Origin: Bugula neritina
Taxonomy: Eukaryota; Animalia; Bryozoa
Assembly (NCBI GenBank): GCA_964035545.1
Contig: OZ037769.1
Coordinates: forward strand, 14,042,633 to 14,106,632
Length of the DNA: 64,000 nucleotides
Reading direction: 5' to 3'
In this document: positions 20,320 through 62,952 of the stretch, in pieces
Layout of the letters: every line of letters begins with the position of its first letter
How positions within the stretch are numbered: the stretch's first letter is position 1
Position numbers and translations under genes: made by a program
The notes under the pieces: generated by a model
Database searches by the model: none
Told to the model about the DNA's origin: nothing
The model's input: only the letters and a program-made list of their open reading frames with translations

Positions 20320-21148
20320 GTAAGTATATTTCAACTATTATTAAAAAATCAAAAGAGACATTCAAAACAAAACATTTTGTCTTTGAAAATTTGCTTCAAA
20401 GTGTTCCAAATAATGTTTTGATTTAGCAAAAAGCTAACGTAAAATATTTTGTCAAACTATGATTTATTGTATTTAAACTAAAAATCCTTTAAAAAGAGAA
20501 CATTTTACAACATTAAGCTCTTATAACTCGTTTAACTTTTTAGCAATTATATATTTATTTTTTGTTTTTTAAAATTCATGTTTTTGGTAGAAATATGTTC
20601 TTCTAAATCATTCAGTAAAAATCTTCATCGTTTTTCATTATTTTGTTGTGCTATATATAATTATAATAACTGGAATAATCTACTTTTTCTATAATTGACT
20701 TACAATTTCCAAAAAAGAAATCTAATGTCAATTAAGTTATTCTCAACATCGGATTTAAAAATGTCCAGCATTAATCCTCACATATAGTTAAAAAAGCTAT
20801 GGTTAACTTTAAAAATATATTACTTTTTTCAGATAAAAGCATTCAACAATAAAATGCATGCTGAAACTTATAAAAATTGGCTGTTTTGCAACAAAATAAT
20901 TTTTAGGATGTGATTCTTATAAAAACTAGAAACTAATATAAACATCGGTTATTCTTTATTTTATGTGAAGTTATTATTCCAATGTAAAAATAATTGCTTC
21001 TTGTCATATTTTAAAAGATAGAAGCTAACTTTGCTATAAAAAACATAAGTTTTGTATTTCATTTAATTATACAAACTTTGCTATAAAAATATATATTTTG
21101 TATTTCATTTAATTATGCAAAATTAACTTTGAAATTATATATATGCAG

Positions 21149-32332: not shown

Positions 32333-33787
32333 GTCTTTCTGTTCACCGCTATCATCATTGTGCATCGCGGTAATTCAACTCCCGAAGAAGAAAAGGCAAA
32401 AGCTGATGATTTGATGAAGGAGCTTGACAAACCGCATGCAGAGATTCGTGCAACTCTGATGACTCAGTTGAAAAGAATTGCAGGGGAGCTGAGGGCATAT
32501 AATGGAGAACGCCCAAACCTTGACTATCTTCAGTGGGTAGTGGCTACTCCATTAGATATAGAGAGAAATACTGAAAGTGGTGCAGAACCGTTGATATTAA
32601 CAAAGCAAGACGTCGAAGTCGACAAACATATTTACAGTAACTTCAAGAAAAGGGAAAATACACCAAAAAAGAGAAATGACAGAAAAAAATATTGCAATGC
32701 TAATTGCATTAAAGAAATAGAAAAACTTCCAACTACAATAAAAAGAGATAACAAAGAAATGGGTAATGGTCACGTGATACACACCGAAATACAAATGCTA
32801 TGCAGAAAGAAGGAAGACAACATATTACATGATGAAGCTAACAAGAACAAAGTAATACTAGTTTACTCAAAGTACATCCCATGTTCTCAAAATCAAAATT
32901 CTCAAGGTGGAACGTTTGTAGAATGTGCCGCAGAGTTGGCAAACTTTATGGCTAATCATAATCCGAACAAAAATAAATTGATTGTGTTTTATGAAACTCA
33001 ACACACTGCCGTGGATAACAACGATCGGGATGTACAAGTTTCATCTGTGGTTGGAGTGTCACAACTTTACATGGAGATGAGTGGCATAGTAGCTTTTAAG
33101 TACACGCCAGAGAATGAAGATGAATCAGGGGGTCCGAATCCACCGAGCGTTTTGCAGAGAGATCCTCAGCTTGTTGAAAAAGCTACATACTTTCGCAAAT
33201 ATCCAAAATTTATTAATTTGGGACGACCTCTTATAAACAATGATTATAAAGCAACTATTACCCAAATTTTCATTGACTGCCTAGCTCGAAACAACTTTGT
33301 AACCCCAAAGACTAGCAAAGAATCAACGCTTGATGTACAATTCATAACTGCTAAGCATTTTCTTTCTCTGATCCCTTATGCTGAAGAAAATGACATCGAC
33401 AAATTATTTGAAATGGCTAATCAAGCAGACAGAATAACAAATAAACAAGACGCATTCATTAAAGGGTGTTACACATTTGCAAAAGATATGTCAACAGATG
33501 ACATCAAAGGAGGCCTTATAGTTCCGGAGAAGGTGGGGGATTACCTCACTTTTAATGGCTACGCTACAAAATTGAATAAATCAAAGAAGATCAATGAGCT
33601 TTCTGTAAACAGTGAAAGAGACGCCTGTGAACCATTCCTAGCTGCTCTGAAGAAATTTTTTAAGCGTGAACGTTATTTGACACCTGTATGCACGGTGAAA
33701 GATTATTCTAATAGATATTCTAATGGCAGAGGTAACAGAAGCAAGGGTAGAAATGGGGGCAGAAGAGGACGCCGACGATATAAGTAG
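32333..33787 (+). CDS. Secreted AID/APOBEC-like zinc deaminase, copy 3, main exon; Arg/Gly-rich tail
   Basis: Acceptor TTTTAG|GTC. Intact ORF with HTEIQML, YSKYIPC-x13-CAAELANF, KLIVFYE, DCLARN; ends GRGNRSKGRNGGRRGRRRYK. Confidence 0.8.
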   Translation, partial: VFLFTAIIIVHRGNSTPEEEKAKADDLMKELDKPHAEIRATLMTQLKRIAGELRAYNGERPNLDYLQWVVATPLDIERNTESGAEPLILTKQDVEVDKHIYSNFKKRENTPKKRNDRKKYCNANCIKEIEKLPTTIKRDNKEMGNGHVIHTEIQMLCRKKEDNILHDEANKNKVILVYSKYIPCSQNQNSQGGTFVECAAELANFMANHNPNKNKLIVFYETQHTAVDNNDRDVQVSSVVGVSQLYMEMSGIVAFKYTPENEDESGGPNPPSVLQRDPQLVEKATYFRKYPKFINLGRPLINNDYKATITQIFIDCLARNNFVTPKTSKESTLDVQFITAKHFLSLIPYAEENDIDKLFEMANQADRITNKQDAFIKGCYTFAKDMSTDDIKGGLIVPEKVGDYLTFNGYATKLNKSKKINELSVNSERDACEPFLAALKKFFKRERYLTPVCTVKDYSNRYSNGRGNRSKGRNGGRRGRRRYK

Positions 33788-38397: not shown

Positions 38398-39819
38398 ATC
38401 TCAGTGTTGATCACTGTAGCCATTGTACGCCGCTGTGTTACACATTCTGAAGAAAATGCAAAAGCTAATGACTTGATGAAGGAGCTTGACAAACGGCATG
38501 CAGAGATTCGTGCAACTCTGATGACTCAGTTGAAAAGAATTGCTGGTGAGCTGAGAAGATATTATCATCAACGTCCAAACAAAGAATATAAGCAGTGGGT
38601 AGTCGCTACTCCATTAATTATAACGAGAAATACTGAAAATGGTAAGGACTCTTTGACTTTGACAGCGCAAAGTGTGGAAGAAGATAAACATATTTACAGC
38701 AATTTCAAAAGACTTCATAATCAAAATGATGAATTAAGAAGAAAATATTGTGATGAGAATTGTATTCAACGAATAGAAGCACTTACAACTAAAATAAAGA
38801 AACATCAGAGAAAACAAATGAGTGAGAACAATATAGTACACACAGAAATGCAAATGCTGTACAGAGATAAAGTTGACAATATACTACACAATAATGCTAA
38901 CAAAGGCAAAATAATACTAGTTTACTCTAAATACATTCCGTGTTCTCAAAATCAAAATTCAAATGGTGGAACGTTTGTGGAATGTGCCGGGGAGTTGGCA
39001 AACTTTATGGCTAATAACAATCCCAATGGAAATAAGCTAATCGTGTTTTACGAAACTAAACATGAAGCAGTAAATAAACACGATGGAGTTAATGTTTCAT
39101 CCGTACTTGGAGTTTCCCAACTTTACATGGAGATGAGTGACATAGTCGCGTTTAAATACACCCCAGAAGATAGAAGCAATGAGAGTAAATTAAAAAGAGA
39201 TCCTTTGCTTGTTGACATGGCCACATATTTTCGTGAGTACCCAATGTTTCTCCATTTGGGTAGACCTCTTATGAATAAAAAATGCAAAGCAACTGTTACC
39301 CAAATATTCATTGACTGCCTAGCTCGAAATAGGTTTGTAAAGTTGACAACGAATCTGATTGAAAACTCTAAAGTACGATTCATAGCTGTTAAATATTTTC
39401 TTTCTGAACTTTCACATGCAAAGGAAAATAATCTTGAAGATTTGGTTACTGCAGCTAAGAACGGTAAAAATCCAACTGATCAACAACGTGCTATTGTTGG
39501 AGGATGCCATGTTTTTGCCAAAGAAATGATTGAAGATAGTATCAAGAAACAGTACATTAAAACTGAGCGGAAGAAAACTGAATATCTCAGTTTTGATGGG
39601 ACTGCTGCAAAAACTACTGAATATTTTGATAAAGATGAGAAAGAAACTTGTAGAGCATATCTCAAAGTTCTAAATGAGCATTTTAATAGAAAAACTAGTA
39701 AAACAAATGTGTGTTTGGTAGAGCCACTTTTTAATGGTGATGATTATGAGAGGGATAAAGAGAATATTATGAGTGATAAAAAAACTGAAAATAATAATCA
39801 TATCTATGACGAATTATAG
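38398..39819 (+). CDS. Secreted AID/APOBEC-like zinc deaminase, copy 4, main exon (intact ORF but own exon 1/promoter deleted)
   Basis: Acceptor TTTTAG|ATC; HTEMQML, YSKYIPC-x13-CAGELANF; ends IYDEL*. Upstream DNA lacks the segment homologous to ~44748-46165. Confidence 0.7.
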   Translation: MSVLITVAIVRRCVTHSEENAKANDLMKELDKRHAEIRATLMTQLKRIAGELRRYYHQRPNKEYKQWVVATPLIITRNTENGKDSLTLTAQSVEEDKHIYSNFKRLHNQNDELRRKYCDENCIQRIEALTTKIKKHQRKQMSENNIVHTEMQMLYRDKVDNILHNNANKGKIILVYSKYIPCSQNQNSNGGTFVECAGELANFMANNNPNGNKLIVFYETKHEAVNKHDGVNVSSVLGVSQLYMEMSDIVAFKYTPEDRSNESKLKRDPLLVDMATYFREYPMFLHLGRPLMNKKCKATVTQIFIDCLARNRFVKLTTNLIENSKVRFIAVKYFLSELSHAKENNLEDLVTAAKNGKNPTDQQRAIVGGCHVFAKEMIEDSIKKQYIKTERKKTEYLSFDGTAAKTTEYFDKDEKETCRAYLKVLNEHFNRKTSKTNVCLVEPLFNGDDYERDKENIMSDKKTENNNHIYDEL

Positions 39820-42800
39820 AGCGGAGGTGGAGGAGATTACGTAATCAATAAAAATCATTTTGAATATCGAACTATAAAAATGGTTACTATATATAAGTGT
39901 TATACAGCGGAAAGAATAAAAATTACAGATAGAATAATAACTCTGAGATAAAGATTATATAGAATCAATGCTGGATATAACAAGTGTAACAACGATTATC
40001 AAGAAGGAAGAAATAGAAAATAATTTTAAAAAATTGCTTAACTTATAGACCTCGTCATGATCTTGAAAAATTAAGAAGATACAAAAAAGCAAAAGTTTAA
40101 AGAAATTTCTTGCAAATTATATTAGGGTATAAAAAAACTCTTTCTATAGTACAAGCTGTTTTGTTTGCTCATTATAATATACATGATTGTTTAACAATAG
40201 ACATTTTGCAATTTTAAATACTTGTATTTTTTAAAGTTTTTTTTATTCACTAATTTATTTTTATTTTTCATCACTAATTAGATTGTCATATAATATAAGT
40301 TCTATAATATGCAAATAAATAAAAATCATGACAATGAAACCAACTCAGTTTTTGTACAAGTTATTGAAACATAGCAGTATGTTGAAAACATCAACATTTG
40401 TTTAATCACAAAAATAGCATAAAACATGTCATAAAAACTAAAGGTATTACAATATATTGTAAAAAATTGTCTGAAAATTCAACATTTCTATATAATATCC
40501 AACTTGGTTGATAAAATGTGTAAGAAGTTTTGAAACAACTTTTGCTCTGCATTTTACAATACATTCCAATGCTATTTCTTGGTTATTTTCATTATCATAT
40601 TCAGCTAAATTGTCCTTATAAGATTTTAAATCATGCATGCATACAAACTATTAATTGTTTTTCATTAGAAGGCTTATTGGATATAATATAATAATTTACA
40701 AAGAAGAAGTGATCAAATTGAATTAATTTCTTCAATCTATCTTTTCAACAAGATATTAATATACAGCTCTTTGTACATCTCAGCTATAATTGTTTGGTAT
40801 TCTGTGATCATCTATATAAAAGTAGTATATATATGCAGCATGTCTATGTGTTTATTTACAATTAATAGCCAATCACATGCTGTTATTAATCAGCAGTTGT
40901 AACAAAACTATGTGCAGATGGAGTTTCACAAATTATAAAAAAAATTTTAACTGTTTGAAACATTTACTCAGCACAAAAGCCAGTAACAATATTATAAACT
41001 TCAAAATATTCAACTCTATAAGTTTAGAGCTGTGAATTATAGACTGCCCAATGCAGACGATCCCGACCATTGCTATCAAAGACTTTGAACTTTAGAATTA
41101 AATGATTATAATGTAGAAGAACAGTAGCTATAATAGTGCATTATAGTATTTTAAAAAATTAGACATTTTATGAATTTGGCTGCAGTATAAACTGTTAGAG
41201 CTGTATATATAGCTTCAATGAGTCATAAAATATGCACATGCATGCATGGCGTCAATTATAACACACCTGCACGCATGAATTCACATGAAACCAAAATAAA
41301 TGCAACTATTAGCATCAAATATTATTTTCTTAATTTTGAATGCTTTTCAAATGAAGTTGTCTATCTGAACTGAAACCGAGTTAGCAGCTATCTAAAAGCA
41401 AGAAACATTAGCTACGGTCCTATAGCTACATAACAGCTTAGCTATAGTTGATATATTACAGCAGAGCCTTCCTTGAAATATTGTCAAGGCTTAGCTATGT
41501 TTGAGCCATTAATTACCCATCACCCTCATACAATACCAGTACACTACTGAATACAAAAAACACCCAAGCGTCATAATAATTCAGCTGATATAATAATTCT
41601 GCTCATAATAATTCTGCTCATAATAATTCTGCTCATAAGATCTGATGATAACTTTCAGAGAGCAGAAGAAAAAGATAATATCAATACTGTGAGCATCATC
41701 AAGTTCATTGGAACACAACTCCTACTCACTGTCTCTAGATTCAGACAAATTCAGGTGCTGTAAAGATAAATCACCAAGTGCAGCAATGCAATACGCATGT
41801 GTTGAATGTGTTGATTATAGGATATAATCTTCCACAGTGATGAAAATAAACATTCATATAATACCATTACTTATCAATGCTAATAATAGTAATTGTCTTC
41901 TCTCTGTTTGAATACTTTATCATATTACACACAATACTTGTCCTGTTCTTTCTCTTCTTCTTTATACGTAAAGTACAGCATGTCTTGTCAACTACAGCTC
42001 TACTGATTTTATCTCAATAACTAACATAAATAAGATTACCATCAGCCTCCAACTCAACAAAATGGTAAAGACAGCTATAATTACTGCTATGACAACAAGA
42101 CGTTAATTAACCTCAAAAATTATCATCATAATCAACAGCCTATTGTCTCAGGCTACAGAAAGAAGCAGAAAAGCTACCAATTGCTTCACTAAAATGATGT
42201 CAAGATCAATTTGAAGCCAAAAACTCTTAGACCATATTTATTGCAATAATTCACATCTACTTATGTTATATTGGTTGGTTACTGCACTATAAATGCATAC
42301 ATTAAATACCATTTAATTAGTATAAGCTCAAAAATTGGACATGAAGAAGCAAATTTTTTATTATCATGTGCATAATAATTTTATGTGTTTTAGAAAACAG
42401 GATGTGAAACGTGAAACGTTATGCTAAACGCAACGCTGAATGCTTAATAATTACTGTTGGATATTCATTACGTTATGCTGCTTTTACAACTTGACATATA
42501 ATTATGCTATGTGATAACTTTACAGCCTGCATGAGCTGTTATATAAATGCTGGTTTTCTCATATATTCATAAAAAAACGTTACTTCTAATTTTCAAGTCT
42601 GTTGTTGTGTATTTAAAAGTGTGTACACATTTTAAAATCATTTCATCTAATCTTCATATGAGTAATTTGCAATTTAAATAATATAGCCCTTTTGGAGTAC
42701 TATTCTATTTTTAAATTAGTATAATATATAATGCATACAGCCAAAATAATATGTTTATGTAAGTGAGTGGAAAAACTTGTCGTAATTCTTTTTATTTTTG

Positions 42801-45244
42801 ATAATAATTTATAACCTGTTGCTTAAACCACAAAGAGCTAAAAAATAATCCTCAACTTAGAGAATTCAAAATGGATTTTGGCTAATGAATTATCTGAATT
42901 AGTGATGGAAGACAGGATGACTCCAAAATTTCATTTCTATGTCTGCTTTTGTGTAAAATTTCATTTCACATGTAAGCTACTCTGGTGAATTTTAGAGTTA
43001 TCTTTTCTTACTGTTGTTTAATCTAGCACATATCAATATTCTTATTCCTTTTTGTTTTGAAGTTTTCGATTTGATAAACTGGTCTTCATTTGAAGTCGAG
43101 TCAGAACTTTGACACTCCGTACTCAGAATGTCAAACACTCATATGATATTGTGGGTTAATTATAGTGTGGCTTGCTTTTTCAAATTTTCAGCTGCATTTA
43201 CTTTTGAAAAGTATTTTTAAGCTACTCGGTTTTGTTCCGAGACTCAAATTTCAACAATCAATATTATGCAATGGTTTAGAATTAATGCGCTTTACTTTGC
43301 ACGTCTTTGAGCCTGTATGTGTAGAATGATATTGTTAACATGATATTATTGAAAATAATGTTCGAAGCATCACTTATATTATATAATTTGAAGCATGCAA
43401 TAGATGGAGGGTGTTCGTCTTTTTTAACTTTCATAATAATTATTACAAGTATATAGCATGTATGCAACAATAAACCTGACTATCATGCTCCTGACAGCTA
43501 TACTATTGCATACAAAGTTGTAGTTTTACTGAAGCACTATGCAAGCACTGTACTGAAAATTAAGATATGAGTGGTAAATTTTCTATTATAGGTGAAAATA
43601 TACACACATTTGAAGCTAGCATGTAATATATCTTTAGTATGCCCTTTGCAAGTTTGTGGGACAACATTTGATTGTTTGAGAGAATAGGTTTATTTAAACT
43701 ACACGTATGTATCAGTATAATATATACAATTGCCATTACGTGTGTAAATCAAAGCTGCAAAGTGCATGAATAGTTTTCTATAAGTAAAGGATGGTGTTAT
43801 TAAACTAGGTGAATGTTAATTCCAAATGAGCACTCGTCTATTCGATCATCTAGTTTGACTTTTAGTGGCTGCTTTCGTGAAATCAATCTATTGCTGTTAC
43901 TTATTCTTAGTCTGCTTGGGGTTGATGATTGAGATTTAGACAAAAAACATGCTGCAAGAACACATAATATCTTTCTATAGAACAATACATATTTGTACTC
44001 TGCATAAAATCAATACATGATACGCTGTTAGTTGTGCAGTAATCAATGGTATATATATACTTAAAACTTATTGTGTACATAACAACTTTTTTTCATTATT
44101 ATATTGTTGATAATGTTATTGAGAGAAATGCTCCATATGATATGCCGTAGAATATACAGCAAGCAGTTTATAGCATAGCTCAGTGAAGTCTACTACATGC
44201 ATGAAGGTACGAAAAGACTAAACAAATGTGTTATAGTATGTAGAAACAAAATCCTTTAGGCTATACATGATAGTAGCATATATGTATATTATATATTGTG
44301 ATAGCGTATAGAGGTGTTAGTATATGTATATAATAAATTTGTTGTATATAACATGTATACTATAAGTGTTAGTATGTATATTATATATGATAGCATATGT
44401 ATTATAATATATATATATATGGTTATAGGATCTATTACATTTGATAGAATGTATAATAGATTGGCTACACAACTGTTAGTGGAATGCAGATAATTTTCAT
44501 TACAGTAAAGTTCACCATCTCATTAACCTCCTATAATAATATGCTGTTGCTTCCGTTATCTTTCAATTCAATAGTAAAATCCTAGTTTATTTTCTGCTGA
44601 CAGTGGTATCATACTTGTGCATGGCTATATAGCGTATTGCATCACTATTGCATCATCTTTGTGGCTATAGCTTAAAGTAATGACATCACCCTACATACTT
44701 ATACAAGTAAGCCAGTTGAAGGTTATTACTACAGTCATCAACACATGTTTTTAGACACTGATTTGTAAAGGTGTATACAGCCAATTTAAAGAATGATATA
44801 GTTATCTGCATCCCATAGTGTGACAACAGAGATAACAAAGGGTAAATAAATGGTTAACAAAGGGTTAAAAAATGGTTAACAAAGGGTTGTTAATAAAGTT
44901 ACACCGAATCAAACATTTGCACCCTGTGCAGACTGCAGACTCATTATTGCCACTGAGAAGTAGATACATAGTTTGTGTGTTACTTTTGGTGCTTATATGT
45001 ATATTATATGTGATAGTATGCATCTCTTATATGTGATAGTAGTTATAATGTATTGTATATACTATCGCACATACGATGTATTATATGCAATAGTATATAT
45101 GTTGTATATTAATAGTACGTGTATAATTATTTTATGTGTTATTATGGATTTTATGTGTGTTAATATGTATGTTCTATGTGATAGTATGTATGTTATATAT
45201 GTATTATGTGTGCATGGGTGTGTTATAACATTGTATATAATGCA

Positions 45245-45500
45245 CATATTATCATACACAATAAACATATGCTTATATATAATATACATATGCTTATGCA
45301 TAATAAACATATGCTTATACATAACATACATACGCTTATACATAATACACATATGTTTATACATAATATATATATGCTTATACGTAATACACATATGCTT
45401 ATATATAATATACATATGCTTATGCATAATAAGCATATGCTTATACATAACATACAAATACTTATGCATAATATACTTATGCATATACATATATATAATG
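45245..45500 (+). repeat. ~21-bp AT-rich minisatellite (CATAATAAACATATGCTTATA) upstream of the copy 5 promoter
   Basis: About 11 degenerate tandem units; source of the spurious I/Y/C/H-rich ORFs. Confidence 0.85.
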
Positions 45501-45695
45501 TATACAATATTATATACACAATCAAATATTTTAACTCTATATATAATACGCTCATTTTATTAGACTGTACTAGGAGCAACACCCAAGCATGGCGCCACAC
45601 CACACAAGAATATTGGTAAACTAAGTATATAAGCAGACAGCAGGAGGCGCTTTTTCACTTCTTAGTTCAGAGGCTTTCTAAGAAGTTCATCTAAA

Positions 45696-45716
45696 ATGAC
45701 TCATCTAAGACTTTTG
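45696..45716 (+). CDS. Initiator micro-exon of deaminase copy 5 (MTHLRLL)
   Basis: AAAATGACTCATCTAAGACTTTTG|GTAAGT, homologous to copy 3 exon 1; TATATAA at 45626. Confidence 0.8.
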
Positions 45717-46787
45717 GTAAGTGGAGAAAATATATATTTAATGCTGATGTACTCTAAATTATATTTTAGGAAAGTAGCTATAGCTCAAAGTACTCATTAT
45801 ATGAGTTTAGTTTATGCATGGAAAGTTCCAATGATGTTTTATTTATGAATACGATGTTTTTATATGCAACTTTAGTTTACAATCAGCTATTTATTACTTC
45901 TAACAAAATTATAATGTAGGTATAGTTATAAGAGCCAACTTTATTATGAGTAAATTTGGAAGTCCATTCTTTAAAGTGTTTTGGGGACAATTGACTATAA
46001 TTTGAATGGTCTGTAAAATGTAGTATTTTGTATATTATGTGTACAACAGGTAGCAGCAGTTCAAAAGTAGCTATCTTAAACTTAGTCAGTAATATAAAAA
46101 GTTTTCGCAACATAATTCCTGATCTATACACCCCAATTTTAGTTTTGAAAATGGTAACAAAATTGTGTGTCTTTAAATTAAAGACGTTTGTATTCATCTC
46201 TCTGAAATAGATATTTTGTTTTAGATTATGTATAGAATTTTAGGACAACAAATTACGTACCATCATATTATTGTATTAATGTTTCAATAGGAGTTTGGCA
46301 ATCTATGTAATATTTTTTGACTTTCTAAATTATAAAAATTGTGCTTTAATATGATGTGTGTATTTATCATCACAGACCATGAATGTTATAGGAGAATAAA
46401 TATAACAGAATTAATTACGTTGCAAAAAAGCAGCTTTCCCTGAGTATCAAAAATCGCCTTATATGTCAGCCAATCACAACAGAGAAAAACATAATGTTAT
46501 AGCTAACATATAGCCATTAAAATACAAATAAAATTATTATGATTTAACCAAAACTTTCCAAGCAGTTTTTGGAGTAATGCTAATTAATTATACCATCAAA
46601 ATAAATTATTTAATACAATGATGAAAACACAAATGTTGTGAAGCTTTATTTACTTCTTTAGTATACCATAGAACGTTAGGTCATGTAGCACATATCAACT
46701 TCTGCATGACATGCAATATTTTTACAATATGAAAAAAAGTTAATTTTGACTTATACGAAGTATTGTACTTATTTATGTGTGTTTTAG

Positions 46788-48209
46788 ATCTCAGTGTTGA
46801 TCACTGTAGCCATTGTACGCCGCTGTGTTACACATCTTGAAGAAAATGCAAAAGCTAATGACTTGATGAAGGAGCTTGACAAACCGCATGCAGAGATTCG
46901 TGCAACTCTGATGACTCAGTTGAAAAGAATTGCTGGTGAGCTGAGTGAGTATTATAATCAACGTCCAAACCGTGCCTTTACTCAGTGGGTAGTGGCTACT
47001 CCATTGAATATAAAGAGAAATACTGAAAATGGTAAGGACTCTTTGACTTTGACAGCGCAAAGTGTGGAAGAAGACAAACATATTTACAGCAATTTCAAAA
47101 GACTTCATAATCAAAATGATGAATTAAGAAGAAAATATTGTGATAATGACTGTATTCAGCAAATAGAAACACTTACAACTAAAATAAAAAAACATCCGTG
47201 GAAACAAATAGGTGAAAACAATATAGTACACACAGAAATGCAAATGCTGTACAGAGATAAAGTTGACAATATACTACATAATGAAGCTAATAAAAATAAA
47301 GTAATACTAGTTTACTCAAAGTATATTCCGTGTTCTCAAAATCAAAATTCAAATGGTGGAACGTTTGTGGAATGTGCCGGGGAGTTGGCAAACTTTATGG
47401 CTAATAACAATCCCAATGGAAATAAGCTAATCGTGTTTTATGAAACTAAACATGAAGCAGTAAATAAACACGATGGAGTTAATGTTTCATCCGTACTTGG
47501 AGTTTCCCAACTTTACATGGAGATGAGTGGCATAGTCGCGTTTAAATACACCCCAGAAGATAGAAGCAATGAGAGTAAATTAAAAAGAGATCCTTTGCTT
47601 GTTGACATGGCCACATATTTTCGTGAGTACCCAATGTTTCTCTATCTGGGTAGACCTCTTATGAATAAAGAATGCAAAGCAACTGTTACCCAAATATTCA
47701 TTGACTGCCTAGCTCGAAATAGGTTTGTAAAGTTGACAACGAATCTGATTGAAAACTCTAAAGTACGATTCATAGCTGTTAAATATTTTCTTTCTGAACT
47801 TTCACATGCAAAGGAAAATAATCTTGGAGATTTGGTTACTGCAGCTAAGAACGGTAAAAATCCAACTGATCAACAACGTGCTATTGTTGAAGGATGCCAT
47901 GTTTTTGCCAAAGAAATGCTTGAAGATAGTATCAAGAAACAGTACATTAAAACTGAGCAGAAGGAAAATGATTATCTCAGATTTGATGGAACTGCTGCAA
48001 AAACTACTGAATATTTTGATCAAGATGAGAAAGAAACTTGTAGAGCATATCTCAAAGTTCTAAATGAGCATTTTAATAGAAAAACTAGTGAAAAAAATGT
48101 GTGTTTGGTAGAGCCACTTTTTAATGGTGATGATTATGAAAGGAATAAAGAGAATAGTATGAATGGTAAAAAAATTGAAAATAATAACCAAATCTATGAC
48201 GAATTATAG
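46788..48209 (+). CDS. Secreted AID/APOBEC-like zinc deaminase, copy 5, main exon
   Basis: Recent duplicate of copy 4. Signal MTHLRLLISVLITVAIVRRCVT; intact HTE/PC-x13-C; ends IYDEL*. Confidence 0.8.
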   Translation: MSVLITVAIVRRCVTHLEENAKANDLMKELDKPHAEIRATLMTQLKRIAGELSEYYNQRPNRAFTQWVVATPLNIKRNTENGKDSLTLTAQSVEEDKHIYSNFKRLHNQNDELRRKYCDNDCIQQIETLTTKIKKHPWKQIGENNIVHTEMQMLYRDKVDNILHNEANKNKVILVYSKYIPCSQNQNSNGGTFVECAGELANFMANNNPNGNKLIVFYETKHEAVNKHDGVNVSSVLGVSQLYMEMSGIVAFKYTPEDRSNESKLKRDPLLVDMATYFREYPMFLYLGRPLMNKECKATVTQIFIDCLARNRFVKLTTNLIENSKVRFIAVKYFLSELSHAKENNLGDLVTAAKNGKNPTDQQRAIVEGCHVFAKEMLEDSIKKQYIKTEQKENDYLRFDGTAAKTTEYFDQDEKETCRAYLKVLNEHFNRKTSEKNVCLVEPLFNGDDYERNKENSMNGKKIENNNQIYDEL

Positions 48210-49360
48210 AGTGGAGGTGGAGGAGATTACGTAATCAATAAAAATCATTCTGAATATCGAACTATAAACAATGGCTACTATATATATTCGTGATGATAAG
48301 TGTTATACAGCGGAAAGAATAAAAATTACAGATAGAATAATAACTCTGAGATAAAGATTATATAGAATCAATGCTGGATATAACAAGTGTAACAACGATT
48401 ATCAAGAAGGAAGAAATAGAAAATAATTTTAAAAAATTGCTTAACTTATAGACCTCGTCATGATCTTGAAAAATTAAGAAGATACAAAAAAGCAAAAGTT
48501 TAAAGAAATTTCTTGCAAATTATATTAGGGTATAAAAAAACTCTTTCTATAGTACAAGCTGTTTTGTTTGCTCATTATATACATGATTGTTTAACAATAG
48601 ACATTTTGCAATTTTAAATACTTGTATTTTTTAAAGTTTTTTTATTCACTAATTTATTTTTATTTTTCATCACTAATTAGATTGTCATATAATATAAGTT
48701 CTATAATATGCAAATAAATAAAAATCATGACAATGAAACCAACTCAGTTTTTGTACAAGTTATTGAAACATAGCAGTATGTTGAAAACATCAACATTTGT
48801 TTAATCACAAAAATAGCATAAAACATGTCATAAAGACTAAAGGTATTATATAATATATTGTAGAAAATTGTCTGAAAATTCAGCACTTCTAATATCAAAC
48901 TTGGTTGATAAAATGTGCAAGGAGTCTTGAAACAACTTTTGCTCTGCATTTTACAACACATTCTGATGCTATTTTTTGTTATTTTCATTATATTCAGCTA
49001 AATTGTCCCTATAAGATTCCAAATCATGCATGCATACAAACAATTAAGTGTTTTTCATTAGAAGGCTTATTGGGTATATAATAATTTACAAAGAAGAAGT
49101 GATCAAATTGAATTAATTTCTTCAATCCATTTTCTTTTCAACAAAATTTTAATATACAGCTCTTTGTGCATATCTCAGCTACAATTGTTTGGTATTCTGT
49201 GATCATCTATATAAAAGTAGTATATATATGCAGCATGTCTATGTGTTTATTTACAATTAATAGCCAATCACATGCTGTTATTAATCAGCAATTGCAACAA
49301 AACTATGTGCAGATGGAGTTTCAAACATTATAAAAAAAGTTTTAAGTGTTTGAAACATTT

Positions 49361-49713
49361 AGTCTAGGGCCACATGGTGCGTATTTTCGCATGCGAAAAT
49401 TGAAATCATGGGTAGCAAAGGTGTCCACTGTACGCGTTAAGAAAACATTCGCACTTGTCGCTCAGCATTCTCAACGCAAGTGCGAATCGTCTCTGTCGTC
49501 GTCACCTAATTGGCTGGTAGTTATTCAGCAAACCCAATTTCTTTATTTTAGTGCTACATTCCAGTAAATTGCGTTTTATTGAAAGCGAGCGCGATTTAAA
49601 AATGAAAGCTTTATATATATCACTCAACGCATCACTGTCATTACAGTGGACACCTTTGCTACTTGTGATTTCAATTTTCGCATGCGAAAATACGCAACGT
49701 GTGGCCCTAGGCT
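49361..49713. mobile_element. MITE (non-autonomous DNA transposon), 353 bp with ~72-bp terminal inverted repeats
   Basis: 49361-49432 (AGTCTAGGGCCACA..GGTGTCCACTGTA) is the imperfect inverse of 49642-49713. The empty site GAAACATTTACTCAGCAC is present in the paralogous unit at ~40957-40974. Confidence 0.9.
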
Positions 49714-50868
49714 TATACTCAGCACAAAATCTAGTAACAATCTTATAAACTTCAGAATATTCAATTCTATTTGTTTAGAGCTGTGAATTATAGACTGCCC
49801 AATGCAGACAATCTCGACCATTGCTATCAGATACTTTAAACTTTAGAATTAAATGATTATAATGTAGAAGAATATAGTAGCTACAATAGTACATTATAAT
49901 ATTTTAAAAAATTAGACATTTTATGAATTTGGCTGCAGTATAAACTTTTAGAGCAGTATAAACTGGTAATAGAGCAGTATTATATATAGCGTCAATGAGT
50001 CATAAAATATGCACACGCATGGCGTCAATTATAACACACCTGCACACATGAAACCAAAATAAGTGCAACTATTTATAGCATCAAATATTATTTTCTTAAT
50101 TTTCAATGCTTTTTAAAAGAAGTTGTCTATCTAAACTGAAACCAAGTTAAAAGCTATCTAAAAGCAAGAAACATTAGCTACGGTCCTATAGCTACATAAC
50201 AGCTTAGCTATAGTTGATAATTATATTACAGCTAGCAGAGCCTTCTTTGAAATATTAGCAAGGCTTAGCTATATTTGAGCAATTAATTACTCATCACCCT
50301 CATACAACACTGGTACACTACTTAATACAAAAACACCCAAGCGTCATAATAATTCTGCTCATATAAAACCTGATGATAAATCTCGTGGAGAAGAAAAAAA
50401 AAATAATATTGATACTGTGAGTATCAATAAGTCCATTGGTCCACAACTCCGACTCGCTGTCTCTAGACTTATAAAAATCAAGGTGATAAAAATAAACCAG
50501 CAATGCAATATACAGGATATAATTGAATGTTTTGATAAGATACATTCTTCTATAGTGATGAAAATAAACATTCATATAATATTATTATTTATCAATGCTA
50601 ATAATAGTAATTGTCTTCTCTCTGTTTGAATACTTTATTATATCACTCACAACACTTTCCTGTTCTCTCTCTTCTTATTTATACGTAAAATACAGAAGTC
50701 TTGTCAACTACAACTCTACTGATTTTATCTCAATAATTAACATAAATAAGACGACCATCAGCCTCCAACTCAAAAAAAGGTCAAGACAGCTATAATTACT
50801 GCTATATGGTGACAAGACTTTACACCTGAAAAATTATCATCATTATCAACAGCCGATTGACTCGGGCT

Positions 50869-55216: not shown

Positions 55217-56230
55217 GTAAGTTCATTATTTTACTTTCTACTTTTAGTTTTAGGTTTGTCTGATAATGATGATATCAGCTATTTTGAAGTTTCAATTTAT
55301 TTTAATTAGTAAACACCAAGGATATTTATTTTCTGCCTATGTCATACTTTTAGGTGCTAATAAAAATCGGCTTTTGCCTAAATTGCTAGTTAGAAATCAC
55401 CAAACAAAACTAAAAAACGCAGTTATTTGTCATATTTTGTTTTAATTATTTGTAGCAGTCTGTACATGGATAAAATGAGTTTGGCACAATATAAACATTT
55501 ATTGAGTTTAGTCGTTTTTTGTTCAGATTTGTTTTAAACAGAATGATTTTTTTTATGTAAATTTTCTCAGACAATTAAAAATTATTGTTGTTCAATAGTA
55601 ATGTAGGATTCTTCCACATTATAAAAGACATGTTTTAAGAGCATTCAGAAAAGTATTAAGGCATGATTTTTTATTAGGTGTATTTTTGTCTTGTGTTATC
55701 TATGGCAGTAAATGTTGTTAGAACTAAATTTAGTATATACAATTAATTTATTAAAACGTTTTTTGTTTCAAAAAATAGTTATGTTTTTGTTTCAACAGTT
55801 ACTAAATAATGTTAAAATCAACACACGGTTCTCAAATGATTAAAAACATATGTTAATTATAATCAGTTTCTAAAATAAATAAAATTTAGAATACTTGTAT
55901 TTATAAGACAGTACATACTACGAAAGTGCTTGTAAGTATGTCATTTGACATTTGGCAGATGTCTTATCAAAACATTTTTTCTTATGCTGACACGTCAGCA
56001 TATTTATAAAAGTAAATGCTACAACCCACCCTACAATAATATAAAGGCAACAGGATTTTTGAGAACTGGTAACATTGAAAATTGTTTATACAGCTAATAA
56101 TACTTTCAAATCAAGAGTTTTTATTTTGAAATCTTTGAAACTGGTCAAACTATTTAAATATTCATGCAAAATGAAAATGCTAAAAATGTATGAGGTAGCT
56201 TGAAATATTTAACCACTGATGCATTTTTAG

Positions 56231-57577
56231 GTTGTGCTGTTGGTCACCACTACCCTTTTAAGTTATGCTAATGCAGATGCTGCCTTTGAAAAAGCTAAAG
56301 CTGACGAATTGATGAAACGGCTGGACAAAAAAACTATTTCGAAGAATCTGATGAGGCAGTTGAAAAGAATTGCTGGTGAACTGAGCTGGTATTATTCTCA
56401 ACGGCCAAACCCGGACTATGCCCAATGGGTAGTGGCAACTCCTTTGGACATACAAAAAACTGGTAACAGCGATACGGATCCGTTAATTTTGACTAAACAA
56501 GATGTGGTTACTGAACACATTTACAGCAATTACAAAAAGAAAGACCCTGAAAATGACACCAAAAATGAGGAGAGAAAAAAGTTCTGCGATAATCAGTGTC
56601 TTAATAGAATAAAAAAACTTCCAACCAAAATTAAAAAAAATAGAGCGGTAATTGCCGATAGCACCGTTATACACACTGAAATCCAAATGTTATGCAGGAA
56701 AAAGGAAGACAATATACTTAAAAACGAAGCTAATAAGAACAAAGTAATACTAATTTACTCCAAGTATATTCCGTGCTCTCAAAACCAAAATTCTCAAGGT
56801 GGAACGTTTGTGGAATGCGCAGGAGAACTGGCAAACTATGTAGTTGACAAAAAAAAAAATGCTAATGGAAACAAGTTTATTGTTTTTTACGAAACTACAC
56901 ATGAAGCAACAAATGAAAACGATGGAGTAAAAGTTTCATCAGTGCTTGGGGTTTCCCAACTTTACATGGAGATGAGTGGTATTGTAGCTTTTAAATATAC
57001 GTACACATCAACTAGTGATAGGTTAGTAAGAGACCCTTTGCATATAGACAGAGCAGACTACATCCGTAAGTATCCAAAGTTTCTTAGTCTAGGACGTCCT
57101 CTCATCAGTGATAATTACAAGGCAACTTCTATTCAGATGTTTATTGACTGTCTTGCCCGAAATAGATTTCTAGGCCCAGTGACAAAAAAAGTGGATAAAT
57201 TGGAAGTGGAATTTATAACTACTAAACACTTTCTCTCGGAGTATGTTGCCAAAGATAGAAGAGACTTAAAGAAACTGTATAAAAAAATGATAGACGTTGA
57301 AAATATAAAAGCACGTGTATATGTTACTATCACAGGCTGCTATGTTTATGCTAAGAAGATGTCTGCGGATAGCATAAAAAGTGATCTTATTGTGAGAGAC
57401 AAGGAAACTGATTACCTAAACTTTAATGGCTACTACACAGAACTGAATCAAGCAAAGACTACTAGCGACTTTACTTCAGAAACAAAAAAAAATTATTGCA
57501 CTCTTTTCCTCACAAGTCTCAAAAAGTTTTTCAAACGCCAAACTGATTTACAACCTGTATGCTCAGTTGGCAATTAA
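56231..57577 (+). CDS. Secreted AID/APOBEC-like zinc deaminase, copy 6, main exon
   Basis: Acceptor TTTTTAG|GTT. Signal MAYLRLCVVLLVTTTLLSYANA/DA; HTEIQML, YSKYIPC-x13-CAGELANY, KFIVFYE, DCLARN. Confidence 0.8.
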   Translation, partial: VVLLVTTTLLSYANADAAFEKAKADELMKRLDKKTISKNLMRQLKRIAGELSWYYSQRPNPDYAQWVVATPLDIQKTGNSDTDPLILTKQDVVTEHIYSNYKKKDPENDTKNEERKKFCDNQCLNRIKKLPTKIKKNRAVIADSTVIHTEIQMLCRKKEDNILKNEANKNKVILIYSKYIPCSQNQNSQGGTFVECAGELANYVVDKKKNANGNKFIVFYETTHEATNENDGVKVSSVLGVSQLYMEMSGIVAFKYTYTSTSDRLVRDPLHIDRADYIRKYPKFLSLGRPLISDNYKATSIQMFIDCLARNRFLGPVTKKVDKLEVEFITTKHFLSEYVAKDRRDLKKLYKKMIDVENIKARVYVTITGCYVYAKKMSADSIKSDLIVRDKETDYLNFNGYYTELNQAKTTSDFTSETKKNYCTLFLTSLKKFFKRQTDLQPVCSVGN

Positions 57578-61617: not shown

Positions 61618-62952
61618 GTTGTTTTGGTGCTTTTAAACACAATTTGGAGAAGTTGCACTGCAGATGACGATCAACAAAAAAAATTAACTAGAAAATTGAT
61701 GAAAGAACTTGATAAAGATCATGAAAACATAGATACTGATATAATGCAAAAACTGAAAAGAATTGCATCAGAATTATTTGCTTATTCCAATCATTATCGA
61801 AAAAAGTCATTTAACACGAAAAATGGTAAAAAGATTAACCAGTGGGTAGTGGCGACCCCCTTAAAAATTACAAAAACACAAGAAGGCAAGTTTATTTTGG
61901 AAAAAGAAGTTGTAGATGAGAAAAATGACATCTACTCTAACATTTTTTATAACAAAAATATTGGAAATGCTAAGTGTGATTCCACGTGCATCAATAAGCT
62001 AAATACCCTCCCAACAAGAATAAAACCAGAAATCGGAAATGGAAATTCTATACATACTGAAATACAGATGATGTACAAACACACTAAATCTATTTTGAAA
62101 GAAAAAAAATATAAAAATAGAATAATATTGGTTTACTCTACATACATTCCTTGCTCTCAGAATCAGTTTCACAATGGTGGTGTTTTTCTAGAATGCGCAG
62201 GAGAAATGGCAAATTTTGTTGTAGATAAAACTGTAAATGAAGGGAACAATCGATTTATTGTTTTTTATGAAACTGTACATAAGAAGAAGAACACAGTAAT
62301 TGAGGTATCGCAGCTCTACATGGAACTGAGTGGGATAATAGCTCTAAAGTACAACCCAAACACCGGTGACTTACGGAGAGATAAAAGACTTTTGCCAGAA
62401 TTCACAGACCACTTGAGAGATCAGCCAATGTTTCTAAGACTAAGCCGCCCTCTGTTGAATAGTACTTACCAAGCGACTGGTACTCAACTGTTTGTTGACT
62501 GTTTGGCTCGTAATAGTGTTAAAAATCATCCGCCAGAAAAAAACGTGCAATTCACAGTTGCAAAGTACCAACTCTACCACGATTTTTCTATGGGCACGAA
62601 CAAAATTGTAGATGAAAATGAAATGGACAAAGCTTTAATAGCAGCTTTGAAGAATACAGATCAATCCAAAACGCAAAAGGCTTATGCTTTAAGTTGTGGT
62701 GTGTTTGCTAAAGCTATGTTTAAAGACAAAATTAAACATGATTCGATTATAGTTGAAAAGCAGACGACTGACTATTTTTCATTTGACTCTATAAATATTG
62801 CTGCATTGACGCCTAATGAACAAATTCAAGAAAATAAATTTACTTTTAACACAAAAGATGAAATGAAAGCATGCGTTATTTCTCTTCGTAGAGCTAGAAA
62901 CCGTTTCGGATTTGACAAAACAGATCAGCTAAGTTGTAAACTTAAATCTTAA
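61618..62952 (+). CDS. Secreted AID/APOBEC-like zinc deaminase, copy 7, main exon
   Basis: Acceptor CTTTAG|GTT. Signal ..VVLVLLNTIWRSCTA/DD; QWVVATPL, CDSTC, HTEIQMM, YSTYIPC-x13-CAGEMANF, RFIVFYE, DCLARN. Confidence 0.8.
   Translation, partial: VVLVLLNTIWRSCTADDDQQKKLTRKLMKELDKDHENIDTDIMQKLKRIASELFAYSNHYRKKSFNTKNGKKINQWVVATPLKITKTQEGKFILEKEVVDEKNDIYSNIFYNKNIGNAKCDSTCINKLNTLPTRIKPEIGNGNSIHTEIQMMYKHTKSILKEKKYKNRIILVYSTYIPCSQNQFHNGGVFLECAGEMANFVVDKTVNEGNNRFIVFYETVHKKKNTVIEVSQLYMELSGIIALKYNPNTGDLRRDKRLLPEFTDHLRDQPMFLRLSRPLLNSTYQATGTQLFVDCLARNSVKNHPPEKNVQFTVAKYQLYHDFSMGTNKIVDENEMDKALIAALKNTDQSKTQKAYALSCGVFAKAMFKDKIKHDSIIVEKQTTDYFSFDSINIAALTPNEQIQENKFTFNTKDEMKACVISLRRARNRFGFDKTDQLSCKLKS

Follow-up and report, generated by a model that had tools for sequence, protein, structure and literature searches.

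Tandem arrays of APOBEC-like deaminases outside the vertebrates are thought to be immune effectors, and to our knowledge almost no such array has been studied. Gene conversion takes place among the APOBEC3 genes of mammals. Mosaic paralogues and tandem, lineage-specific arrays have been described for AID/APOBEC-like deaminases (Krishnan et al. 2018, PMC5889660, section 12). According to that survey (PMC5889660), APOBEC3 genes have been under positive selection, and loop 7 is a specificity loop of APOBEC3A, where the −1 base is contacted by D131 and Y132. The main text of the survey contains no mention of 'bryozoa' or 'Bugula', and a literature search judged by titles and abstract starts found no paper on bryozoan or Bugula APOBEC-like or cytidine deaminase genes.

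The window analyzed here, a 64,000-nucleotide stretch of Bugula neritina DNA, contains a tandem array of seven APOBEC-like deaminase gene copies, six intact and one a pseudogene (Table 1). The proteins of copy 1 and of most distant relatives begin with Met followed by a hydrophobic stretch; the window ORFs other than copy 1 begin at a splice acceptor within that stretch, and their first exons are only candidates. The copy 5 ORF is likely exon 2, since a pyrimidine tract and AG precede it. The array proteins are predicted to be secreted. Copies 4 and 5 end in YDEL and the relatives P0001 and P0004 in HDEL, ends of a kind that may keep the proteins in the ER instead of letting them be released. 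Among named relatives, the nearest are hypothetical proteins of B. neritina. Copies 4 and 5 lie in duplication units of 7 to 8 kb whose outer flanks are only 80 to 93% identical, and two insertions, one of 1.4 kb and one MITE-like, are present in just one of the two units. No tRNA was found in positions 49000 to 50000.

Table 1. Features of the deaminase array, in window positions
Feature	Positions	Strand	Remarks
Copy 1	21113–22420	+	ORF with its own Met and hydrophobic N-terminus (MQGASLLLLAVLQHGLA)
Copy 2	26601–27809	+	Pseudogene; homology across three reading frames; catalytic HTE changed to HTK
Copy 3	32333–33787	+	Array member
Copy 4	38398–39819	+	Tandem duplicate of copy 5, of equal length
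Loop-1 island, copy 4	38556–38595	+	Counterpart of 46946–46985
Copy 5	46788–48209	+	Encodes an AID/APOBEC-like zinc deaminase predicted to be secreted; stop-to-stop ORF of 473 codons and a stop codon
Loop-1 island, copy 5	46946–46985	+	13 differences in 40 nt (32.5%) from copy 4
Rest of non-homogenized N-terminal segment	46986–47324	+	Copy 4 38596–38934; 8.8% divergence over all sites
Loop-3 patch	47193–47216	+	HPWKQIGE in copy 5, HQRKQMSE in copy 4 (38803–38826); four residue differences, directly ahead of the HTE helix
HTE	47229–47237	+	His predicted to bind zinc, Glu predicted to be catalytic; invariant in 27/27 aligned family members
Low-divergence tract from PC motif on	47325–47958	+	Copy 4 38935–39568; 8 differences in 634 nt (1.3%); dS about 0.02
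PC-x13-C zinc motif	47328–47375	+	PC 47328–47333, EC 47370–47375; identical in copies 4 and 5
C-terminal part of ORF and start of 3′ flank	47959–48275	+	Copy 4 39569–39884; 6.3% divergence
Noncoding 3′ tract	48276–48834	+	Copy 4 39885–40435; 0 differences in 547 aligned nt
Copy 6	56231–57577	+	Candidate mini first exon MKMLKM at 56171–56188, 43 nt upstream
Copy 7	61618–62952	+	Array member

As modeled, the array proteins adopt an APOBEC-like fold, and they are divergent members of the zinc deaminases. Residues H146, T147, E148, P179, C180, E193, and C194 are invariant in all 27 aligned family sequences, and a conserved insert (loop 5) lies between the two cysteines of the PC-x13-C zinc motif. 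In the AF2 model (pLDDT 81.9; pTM 0.84), the HTE and PC/EC positions agree with helices 147 to 153 and 194 to 204, and strands 4 and 5 are separated by helix 4. The features of a cytidine/nucleotide deaminase (CDA) fold were found, namely a three-layer alpha/beta/alpha arrangement with HxE where helix 2 begins and PC...C where strand 3 meets helix 3. The best Foldseek rows were nearly all deaminases, mostly APOBEC3 chains with some dCMP deaminases (E about 0.01 to 0.1; probability up to 0.97). VIA aligned model residues 52 to 272 with residues 11 to 196 of the APOBEC3A chain 8fij_B (Z 8.9; rmsd 4.2 over 151 residues); APOBEC3 chains took most of the top VIA rows, with RibD (Z 8.6) and dCMP deaminase (Z 8.2) within 1 Z unit of them, and these deaminase values are barely above the VIA noise range of 7 to 8. 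The stretch ECAGELANF matched APOBEC3F PCPECAGEVAEF in a profile search of PDB sequences, in which APOBEC3F was the sole match (E = 1.7). Weak AID/APOBEC-family profile matches were seen in two of four window proteins and four of 12 distant relatives. The short PCxxC spacing is absent: the six intact copies and close relatives have PC-x13-C, with a few residues of variation in the distant members of the 27-sequence alignment. This spacing does not exclude AID/APOBEC-like membership, because some accepted clades carry inserts between the two zinc cysteines, as described in PMC5889660.

Like the invertebrate expansions surveyed by Krishnan et al. (2018, PMC5889660), the array encodes HxE and PC...C zinc deaminases in tandem together with a pseudogene, its paralogues are mosaics of identical segments beside distinct ones, and variable loops 1, 3, and 7 and, in some clades, an intercysteine insert are shared features. 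Unlike those expansions, the window proteins fall below the Pfam AID/APOBEC cut-offs (best 16 to 17 bits against 25 to 27): no curated AID/APOBEC profile scored above its cut-off, and the best matches reached 16.3 bits for NAD1 (cut-off 27), 15.7 for APOBEC_N (25), and 17.4 for SNAD4 (27). In addition, every protein ends in a further helical domain of ~170 residues for which no convincing solved relative was found; for this domain alone, the best Foldseek hit had an E of 1.7, and the best structure comparison, with the FADD death domain, gave a Z of 4.0, which is under the noise range. The SNADs (secreted AID/APOBEC-like deaminases) resemble the window family in a hydrophobic N-terminus, which in the window family would be consistent with a signal peptide, in conserved extra cysteines, and in lineage-specific expansion. 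Profile matches to them were weak and all below threshold (SNAD1, E = 0.0088 in P0018; SNAD4, E = 0.0047 to 0.11), and the Atlas neighbors of the family include a SNAD1/SNAD2 cluster (score 0.84). However, the PC-x13-C spacing and the C-terminal domain set the family apart from SNADs, and the YDEL ends of copies 4 and 5 may do so as well. Mammalian APOBEC3 proteins head the list of structural neighbors of the model (Z 8.4 to 8.9 over the whole catalytic domain), by less than 1 Z unit, and likewise belong to a tandem array evolving by duplication, but sequence identity to them is only 11 to 15%, entry into the secretory pathway is predicted for the bryozoan-type proteins, and ω above 1 is not robust in the bryozoan array.

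Copies 4 and 5 (1,422 nt each, no indels) differ at 71 nucleotides and in 42 of 473 codons and residues. The original prediction held that these differences cluster in substrate-recognition loops, and the peptide pairs that it quoted are indeed found where it placed them: before strand 1, copy 5 has SEYYNQRPNRAFTQW (46944 to 46988) and copy 4 has RRYYHQRPNKEYKQW (38554 to 38598), and the second pair lies in the patch before HTE. Its further observations that the copies are nearly identical from the PC motif on (3 residue differences in 166, codons 181 to 346, at codons 248, 286, and 295) and that the segment after IVFYE varies in length across the family (ETVHDKEET in copy 1, ETQHTAVDNNDRDVQVSS in copy 3) were also borne out. 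Of the residue differences, seven are packed into 13 codons ahead of strand 1, and four occupy the patch ahead of HTE. By the order of secondary-structure elements in the confident model, with loops defined after PMC5889660, the patches are predicted to be the helix 1-strand 1 loop (loop 1) and the strand 2-helix 2 loop (loop 3) of the APOBEC-like fold, so that, by topology, both patches are predicted to flank the active site, not to lie far from it. Clustering exceeded chance: permutation gave P = 0.005 for the maximum of 7 differing residues per 13-codon window and P = 0.02 for the longest stretch of identity, 75 codons. The prediction left unmentioned that loop 7 and the PC...EC loop (loop 5) are identical in copies 4 and 5 and that only 11 of the 42 residue differences lie inside the two quoted patches. 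A further 17, likewise unmentioned, are in the C-terminal third (codons 347 to 468); in the part of the ORF from 47959 on, the amino acid changes are mostly in predicted disordered stretches. Differing sites fall on columns that are variable family-wide (entropy 2.02 versus 1.36; P = 9 × 10−6), and loop entropies (about 1.5) are not above those of the C-terminal domain (1.6 to 2.0).

Divergence between the two units forms a patchwork in silent and noncoding sites as well. Along a 3.2-kb core, successive segments diverge by 3.9%, 32.5% (40 nt), 8.8%, 1.3%, 6.3%, 0.0% (547 nt), and 5.8%, with six breakpoints supported by segmentation (permutation P ≤ 0.007 each). The noncoding tract without differences is taken as a recent conversion tract, because the neighboring DNA is 6% divergent. 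NG86 dS was 0.253 in codons 44 to 179, 0.019 in codons 180 to 346, and 0.018 in codons 347 to 440, making synonymous divergence about 13-fold higher in codons 44 to 179 than in codons 180 to 440. Synonymous differences numbered 16.5 in 77 sites in the N-terminal segment and 5 in 175 from there onward (Fisher P = 7.6 × 10−6), and codons that differ by silent change alone made up 11 of 116 against 5 of 273 (P = 0.0012); fourfold-degenerate sites by themselves, with 2 of 30 against 1 of 98, were too few to bring out the contrast (P = 0.14). Within 46986 to 47324, silent changes were frequent and ω was about 0.22 outside the patches. Silent and noncoding divergence is therefore heterogeneous and interspersed with tracts of identity, the pattern by which we recognize gene conversion, and the clustering of the differences largely coincides with the tract boundaries.

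Other copies show the same patchwork. Copy 3 is 94 to 95% identical in DNA to copies 4 and 5 over codons 20 to 52 and 50 to 83% identical elsewhere; against copy 5 alone, identity is 95% in these codons and 62 to 83% in the remaining N-terminal windows. The dS of copies 4 and 5 against copy 3 was 0.62 to 0.66 in the N-terminal segment and 1.1 to 1.6 further on. In segment trees with outside proteins, the pair (P0001, P0003) grouped on the copy 3 side in the N-terminal segment and on the copy 4/5 side in the C-terminal segment; with support of 45 to 70%, this shift is suggestive only.

Tracts of perfect identity could also arise in the assembly, if collapse or cross-polishing of near-identical repeats had made them and exaggerated the contrast between segments. 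The 547 nt with zero differences and the 634 nt at 1.3% beside segments at 6 to 9% would fit such an error, as would the word depth of contigs, which is 145 to 159 for the copy 5 unit and 61 to 65 for the copy 4 unit, although this depth is not copy number. However, short-read contigs (run X1) match copy 5 without other letters over 742 nt (47217 to 47958), a match that spans positions distinguishing copies 4 and 5. The two tandem units also lie on one sequence with diverged flanks and with the 1.4-kb and MITE-like insertions in one of them only, and the silent clustering in the N-terminal segment is independent of the perfectly identical tracts. We regard an artifact as very improbable.

From the loop differences, the original prediction had gone on to infer diversifying selection. 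For codon tests, we used the six intact window copies only, leaving out pseudogene copy 2 and the metagenome relatives (13 distant loci, 23 to 39% identity); removal of gapped columns retained 382 of 473 codons. For the site models, we computed a GY94 F3x4 likelihood of our own on a fixed topology and took NEB posteriors. Power is low in every site test, because there are only six paralogues and the deep branches are saturated (dS above 1). In single-hit models, M2a was favored over M1a in the N-terminal segment (LRT 11.25; P = 0.0036), with posteriors of 0.85 to 0.98 for ω of about 10 at sites 54, 57, 62, and 65; in the middle and C-terminal segments, the LRT was 0. The signal was lost when multi-hit rates were allowed (P = 0.77; P = 0.20 with rates fixed from the gene remainder) and when copy 4 was dropped (P = 0.21). 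The fitted double-hit rate was 0.16 in the N-terminal segment versus 0.034 in the gene remainder, a difference of about five times, and multi-hit models can absorb genuine signal of repeated adaptive substitution. Pairwise pN/pS of copies 4 and 5 was 0.85 in the patches and 0.37 across the N-terminal segment; given the segment pS, 14.5 patch changes were observed against 10.2 expected (ratio 1.4; Poisson P = 0.15). Overall ω between the two copies was 0.52. Among predefined loops, ω was 0.51 to 0.59 for loop 1, 0.22 for loop 3, and 0.19 for loop 7, against a background of 0.13 to 0.20. Sites with dN/dS above 1 thus appear only as a single-hit signal that is not robust, and diversifying selection on copies 4 and 5 is not demonstrated.

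The dependence of the site-model signal on copy 4 is what one would expect if that copy were drifting toward loss of function, its differences reflecting relaxed constraint on a redundant duplicate rather than anything specific to loops. With copies 3 and 6 agreeing as the outgroup, derived changes numbered 19 in copy 4 and 6 in copy 5 (P = 0.015), and maximum likelihood branch lengths were 0.131 and 0.036, respectively. Copy 4 also has Asp (Asp248) at a near-invariant Gly (MSGIV to MSDIV), a residue present in at least 90% of the 27-sequence alignment and with zero entropy in 14 close relatives, and the array already holds a pseudogene in copy 2. Nevertheless, in a genome with about 30% G+C, copy 4 retains an unbroken ORF of 473 codons, and HTE, PC, and EC are all preserved in it. 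Constraint persists, with the ω of 0.52 overall and 0.22 outside the patches in the N-terminal segment, and relaxation would leave the excess of silent changes and the identical noncoding tract unexplained. We therefore consider decay of copy 4 an improbable account of the pattern.

A stronger contender, although still unlikely in our judgment, is diversifying selection on target recognition: specificity would be set by loop 1 and, less strongly, by loop 3, and selection would favor unlike loop sequences in the two copies and keep the loop-1 island distinct while conversion homogenizes its flanks. All 13 nucleotide differences of the island lie within seven residue-changing codons, and its six conserved codons carry no silent change. 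The island is only 62 to 69% identical in every paralogue pair, the youngest included, and adjoins a tract that is 94 to 99% identical among copies 3, 4, and 5. The model topology that predicts the patches to be loops 1 and 3, the single-hit result at its four sites, and the ω of loop 1, the highest among the predefined loops, point the same way, and PMC5889660 describes substrate loops as highly variable in fast-evolving AID/APOBEC-like clades. Against selection, ω is never significantly above 1 once multinucleotide changes are allowed or copy 4 is dropped, the patch pN/pS stays below 1, and the N-terminal segment that holds the patches also shows elevated silent divergence. Loops 5 and 7 are identical between the copies, only about a quarter of the residue differences fall in the patches, and the loops are no more variable than the C-terminal domain.

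The reading we prefer, with a probability of roughly 0.6, is that the clustered differences are a gene-conversion mosaic in which amino acid changes survived where constraint is weak. The original duplication of copies 4 and 5 would be old, at about 0.15 to 0.25 substitutions per silent site. Later conversion would have homogenized the greater part of the core, with the PC motif and all that follows it, and codons 53 to 179 would have stayed at the depth of the original duplication. The scaffold of this older segment would have remained under purifying selection (ω of about 0.2), and the helix 1-strand 1 loop and part of the pre-HTE loop may evolve at about the neutral rate, so that differences pile up there. 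Since the last homogenization, new amino acid changes would have fallen mainly in the C-terminal domain and in disordered stretches. Some features of the island count against this mosaic: its 32.5% divergence is bounded on both sides by 95 to 99% identity, no donor for either version was found among the seven window copies, and the confinement of its differences to residue-changing codons speaks against a pasted foreign tract, which would be expected to bring silent changes.

These results carry a caution, as a standard site test for positive selection with P = 0.004 vanishes once conversion mosaicism and multinucleotide changes are considered. At the same time, copies 4 and 5 provide a clean natural experiment, being two intact copies that are identical in loops 5 and 7 and in most of the catalytic core, with loops 1 and 3 as the main places of difference. 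Measuring their activities side by side, or exchanging loops between them, would tell if target preference depends on loops 1 and 3 in this remote branch of the family. The N-termini, cysteines, and HDEL-like ends suggest that the family is secreted or ER-resident. More speculatively, and with a likelihood that we put lower again than that of selection on the loops in general, the loop-1 island could be a specificity cassette that has been kept different in every paralogue despite repeated conversion around it, in a bryozoan-specific, secretory-pathway family that is diversifying its target recognition. Were that so, target recognition would have diversified much as it has in immune receptor families.

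Seven paralogues of one APOBEC-like zinc deaminase gene lie in the window, all on the forward strand, in DNA of 25 to 35% G+C (see table). Intact open reading frames (ORFs) of 435 to 484 codons are present in 6/7 copies; copy 2, whose homology to copy 1 passes through frames 3, 2, and 3 and whose catalytic HTE motif reads HTK, is a pseudogene. A pyrimidine tract and AG stand directly 5′ of every intact ORF but that of copy 1, a sequence signal suggesting that these ORFs are probably second exons. The copy 1 ORF itself encodes a Met and then a hydrophobic stretch; for the other copies, first exons are only guesses (e.g., MKMLKM, lying 43 nt 5′ of copy 6).

Paralogues, divergence segments between copies 4 and 5, and neighboring features of the window
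Feature	Position	Strand	Observation
Copy 1	21113-22420	+	Intact ORF
Copy 2	about 26601-27809	+	Pseudogene
Copy 3	32333-33787	+	Intact ORF
Copy 4	38398-39819	+	Intact ORF
Copy 5	46788-48209	+	Intact ORF
Copy 6	56231-57577	+	Intact ORF
Copy 7	61618-62952	+	Intact ORF
Duplication unit, copy 4	35.4-42.2 kb
Duplication unit, copy 5	42.5-50.9 kb
Upstream DNA and first 158 nt of ORF			3.9% divergence, copy 4 vs 5
40-nt loop-1 island	38556-38595 (copy 4)		32.5% divergence vs copy 5
Island end to codon before PC	to 38934 (copy 4)		8.8% divergence vs copy 5
Next 634 nt	after 38934 (copy 4)		1.3% divergence vs copy 5
C-terminal 316 nt	(copy 4)		6.3% divergence vs copy 5
547 noncoding nt after C-terminal segment			0.0% divergence, copy 4 vs 5
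Core beyond 547-nt noncoding tract			5.8% divergence, copy 4 vs 5
1.4-kb insertion	44772-46172		Upstream of copy 5
353-nt insertion	49361-49713		Copy 5 unit only
168-codon open frame	10423-10929		Unrelated to the array

When the six intact copies were aligned with 21 outside relatives, the H-T-E, P-C, and E-C motifs were invariant in 27/27 sequences. All Pfam matches were sub-threshold and to AID/APOBEC families, both for the window proteins (NAD1, E = 0.011; APOBEC_N, E = 0.015; SNAD4, E = 0.11) and for 4 of 12 distant relatives (SNAD1, SNAD4, NAD1, NAD2, and APOBEC_N). An AlphaFold2 model of copy 5 was confident (pLDDT 81.9; pTM 0.84), and its best Foldseek rows were mostly APOBEC3 chains with some dCMP deaminases (E of about 0.01 to 0.1). 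In VIA-align, model residues 52 to 272 matched APOBEC3A across its entire catalytic domain (Z 8.9; rmsd 4.2; 151 residues), with RibD and dCMP deaminases within one Z unit of APOBEC3A. The sole match in a PDB-sequence profile search aligned ECAGELANF with PCPECAGEVAEF of APOBEC3F (E = 1.7), which places the second zinc cysteine 14 residues past the first (PC-x13-C; 47328-47375 in copy 5) instead of in PCxxC. The insert between these cysteines ranks with the best-conserved regions of the protein (entropy 0.48). The family is small, with 22 representatives (E ≤ 0.001) among 1.84 billion proteins, and its named relatives are limited to three hypothetical genes that lie side by side in Bugula neritina.

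A C-terminal helical domain of about 170 residues (copy 5 residues about 270 to 443; 47601-48122) is kept across the family and folded confidently when modelled alone (pLDDT 85); no convincing solved relative of it was found by Foldseek (best E = 1.7) or VIA (best Z = 4.0). Death-fold domains (DD, PYD, CARD, and DED) made up ~10 of 50 weak VIA rows, which may reflect only a common helical bundle. The last four residues are YDEL in copies 4 and 5 (39805-39816 and 48195-48206) and HDEL in P0001 and P0004, the outside relatives closest to them; these endings resemble an ER-retention signal, which would be odd for a protein otherwise taken as secreted.

Copies 4 and 5 are of equal length and differ at 71/1,422 nt and 42/473 codons. 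As the original prediction held, the quoted peptide pairs are present at the coordinates given and the differences cluster, with 7 in a 13-codon window (permutation P = 0.005); a run of 75 codons is identical (permutation P = 0.02). Seven residues differ in codons 53 to 65, where, in the model, helix 1 completes its last turns at codons 53 to 57 and the loop before strand 1 contains codons 62 to 65, and four differ in codons 137 to 142, in the long loop ahead of the HTE helix. With loops named after the definitions in PMC5889660, the predicted topology puts these two patches in loops 1 and 3, which supports the proposed placement in substrate-recognition loops. Neither loop 7 nor the PC...EC loop differs between the two copies. 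From the PC motif to codon 346 only three residues differ (248, 286, and 295), in agreement with the earlier count; a further 17 differences that it left unmentioned fall in codons 347 to 468, about ten of them at pLDDT below 50. Derived changes numbered 19 in copy 4 versus 6 in copy 5 (P = 0.015). Codon 248 of copy 4 (39139-39141) encodes Asp, so that MSGIV, which lies between helix 4 and strand 5, reads MSDIV; at this position at least 90% of the 27-sequence alignment has glycine, and entropy is zero in 14 close relatives. This Asp may impair copy 4.

The duplication units carrying copies 4 and 5 (about 7 to 8 kb) are 80 to 93% identical in their outer parts and 94.5% identical in a 3.2-kb core. 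Change-point analysis of every ungapped core column (3,158 columns, 131 differences) identified six breakpoints (each permutation P ≤ 0.007). Silent sites showed the same mosaic, with NG86 dS of 0.253 in the N segment (codons 44 to 179), 0.019 in codons 180 to 346, and 0.018 in codons 347 to 440. Synonymous differences numbered 16.5/77 sites in the N segment versus 5/175 (Fisher P = 7.6 × 10−6), and codons differing only silently 11/116 versus 5/273 (P = 0.0012); fourfold sites alone were too few for a test (2/30 versus 1/98; P = 0.14). Since the mosaic appears in both all-site and silent divergence, the near-identical block beginning at PC has been homogenised as a tract and not merely conserved. 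The N-terminal cluster of differences sits in the part that retained roughly outer-flank divergence. Over codons 20 to 52 (about 32390-32490), copy 3 shares 94 to 95% DNA identity with copies 4 and 5, versus 50 to 83% elsewhere, and dS of copies 4 and 5 to copy 3 was 0.62 to 0.66 in the N segment versus 1.1 to 1.6 further on; these codons look like a conversion tract common to the three paralogues, ending at the loop-1 island.

Diversifying selection, to which the original prediction attributed the clustering, was not demonstrated. Pairwise pN/pS in the two patches was 0.85 (14.5 nonsynonymous, 3.5 synonymous); at the segment-wide pS of 0.215, 10.2 nonsynonymous differences are expected under neutrality versus 14.5 observed (Poisson P = 0.15, which carries no correction for the post hoc choice of patches). 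Omega was 0.22 in the remainder of the N segment. Across the six paralogues, with loops set in advance from the model, omega was 0.51 to 0.59 in loop 1, 0.22 in loop 3, 0.19 in loop 7, 0.06 in loop 5, and 0.13 to 0.20 in the rest. Codons 347 to 440, where many sites are predicted to be disordered, had 11 nonsynonymous versus 1 synonymous difference (omega 2.7; not significant, P = 0.29).

Our own implementation of the M1a/M2a tests gave a nominal signal in the whole gene (LRT 11.2) and the N segment alone (LRT 11.25; P = 0.0036), with posteriors of at least 0.85 for sites 54, 57, 62, and 65 under M2a and an LRT of 0 in the middle and C-terminal segments. Each flagged codon differs between copies 4 and 5 at two or three nucleotides. 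Adding double- and triple-hit rates improved M1a by 22.3 log-likelihood units, the fitted double-hit rate in the N segment being about five times that in the rest of the gene, and the M2a signal disappeared (LRT 0.52; P = 0.77). It was also lost with multi-hit rates fixed from the rest of the gene (LRT 3.26; P = 0.20) or without copy 4 (LRT 3.14; P = 0.21), and remained without copy 5 (LRT 9.65; P = 0.008). Therefore, the signal belongs to multi-nucleotide codon changes of copy 4. Diversifying selection is not needed to explain the copy 4/5 pattern.

Island identity was 62 to 69% in every pair among copies 3 to 6, the youngest pair included, directly beside a tract 94 to 99% identical among copies 3, 4, and 5. 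All 13 copy 4/5 island differences lie in residue-changing codons, and no donor for either island version was found among the seven window copies. Three explanations fit these features of the island. It may be a nearly unconstrained loop at the neutral depth of its segment, or a short templated conversion whose donor would be an unseen paralogue; together, we favor these two at a probability of roughly 60%. Selection maintaining diversity, the third, would be in keeping with the unusual juxtaposition of low island identity in all pairs with the near-identical tract, but its M2a signal is absent once multi-hit rates are allowed or copy 4 is dropped, and we consider it unlikely.

Bounded by 72-nt terminal inverted repeats that are 92% complementary, the 353-nt insertion looks like a MITE; the bin at its start (49129-49500) had very high word depth in 4/4 sequencing runs. 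The 1.4-kb insertion, absent from the copy 4 unit, is made up of short, degenerate repeats, and these produce long spurious ORFs on each strand. Three runs (X2 to X4), made on another sample of this organism, gave contigs that match copy 5 for ~40 nt (46981-47020) and diverge on both sides, which suggests other alleles or paralogues joining this stretch to different loop-1 and downstream sequence. In the best-matching run, contig word depth was 61 to 65 at 40406-44518 (copy 4 side) versus 102 to 159 at 45403-48834 (copy 5 side), which could be a copy-number or haplotype difference, word depth not being a copy number. The 168-codon open frame carries a pair of Pro/Gln/Ala-rich repeats (APEYSQPPPAAPYQQAPAGSYQQ) and closes with the Cys-rich sequence CGCCSDIGGC.

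PMC5889660 describes lineage-specific AID/APOBEC-like deaminases arrayed in tandem in Lingula, sea urchins, Nematostella, and other taxa. It also describes a pseudogene within such an array, paralogues in which identical segments adjoin dissimilar ones, variability of loops 1, 3, and 7, secreted clades (SNADs and dictyosteliid forms), and, in some clades, inserts separating the zinc cysteines. Its main text has no mention of bryozoans, and no bryozoan deaminase of this kind was found among the literature listings. The locus joins this known kind of lineage-specific tandem array; PC-x13-C spacing and an extra C-terminal domain are two features of its own.
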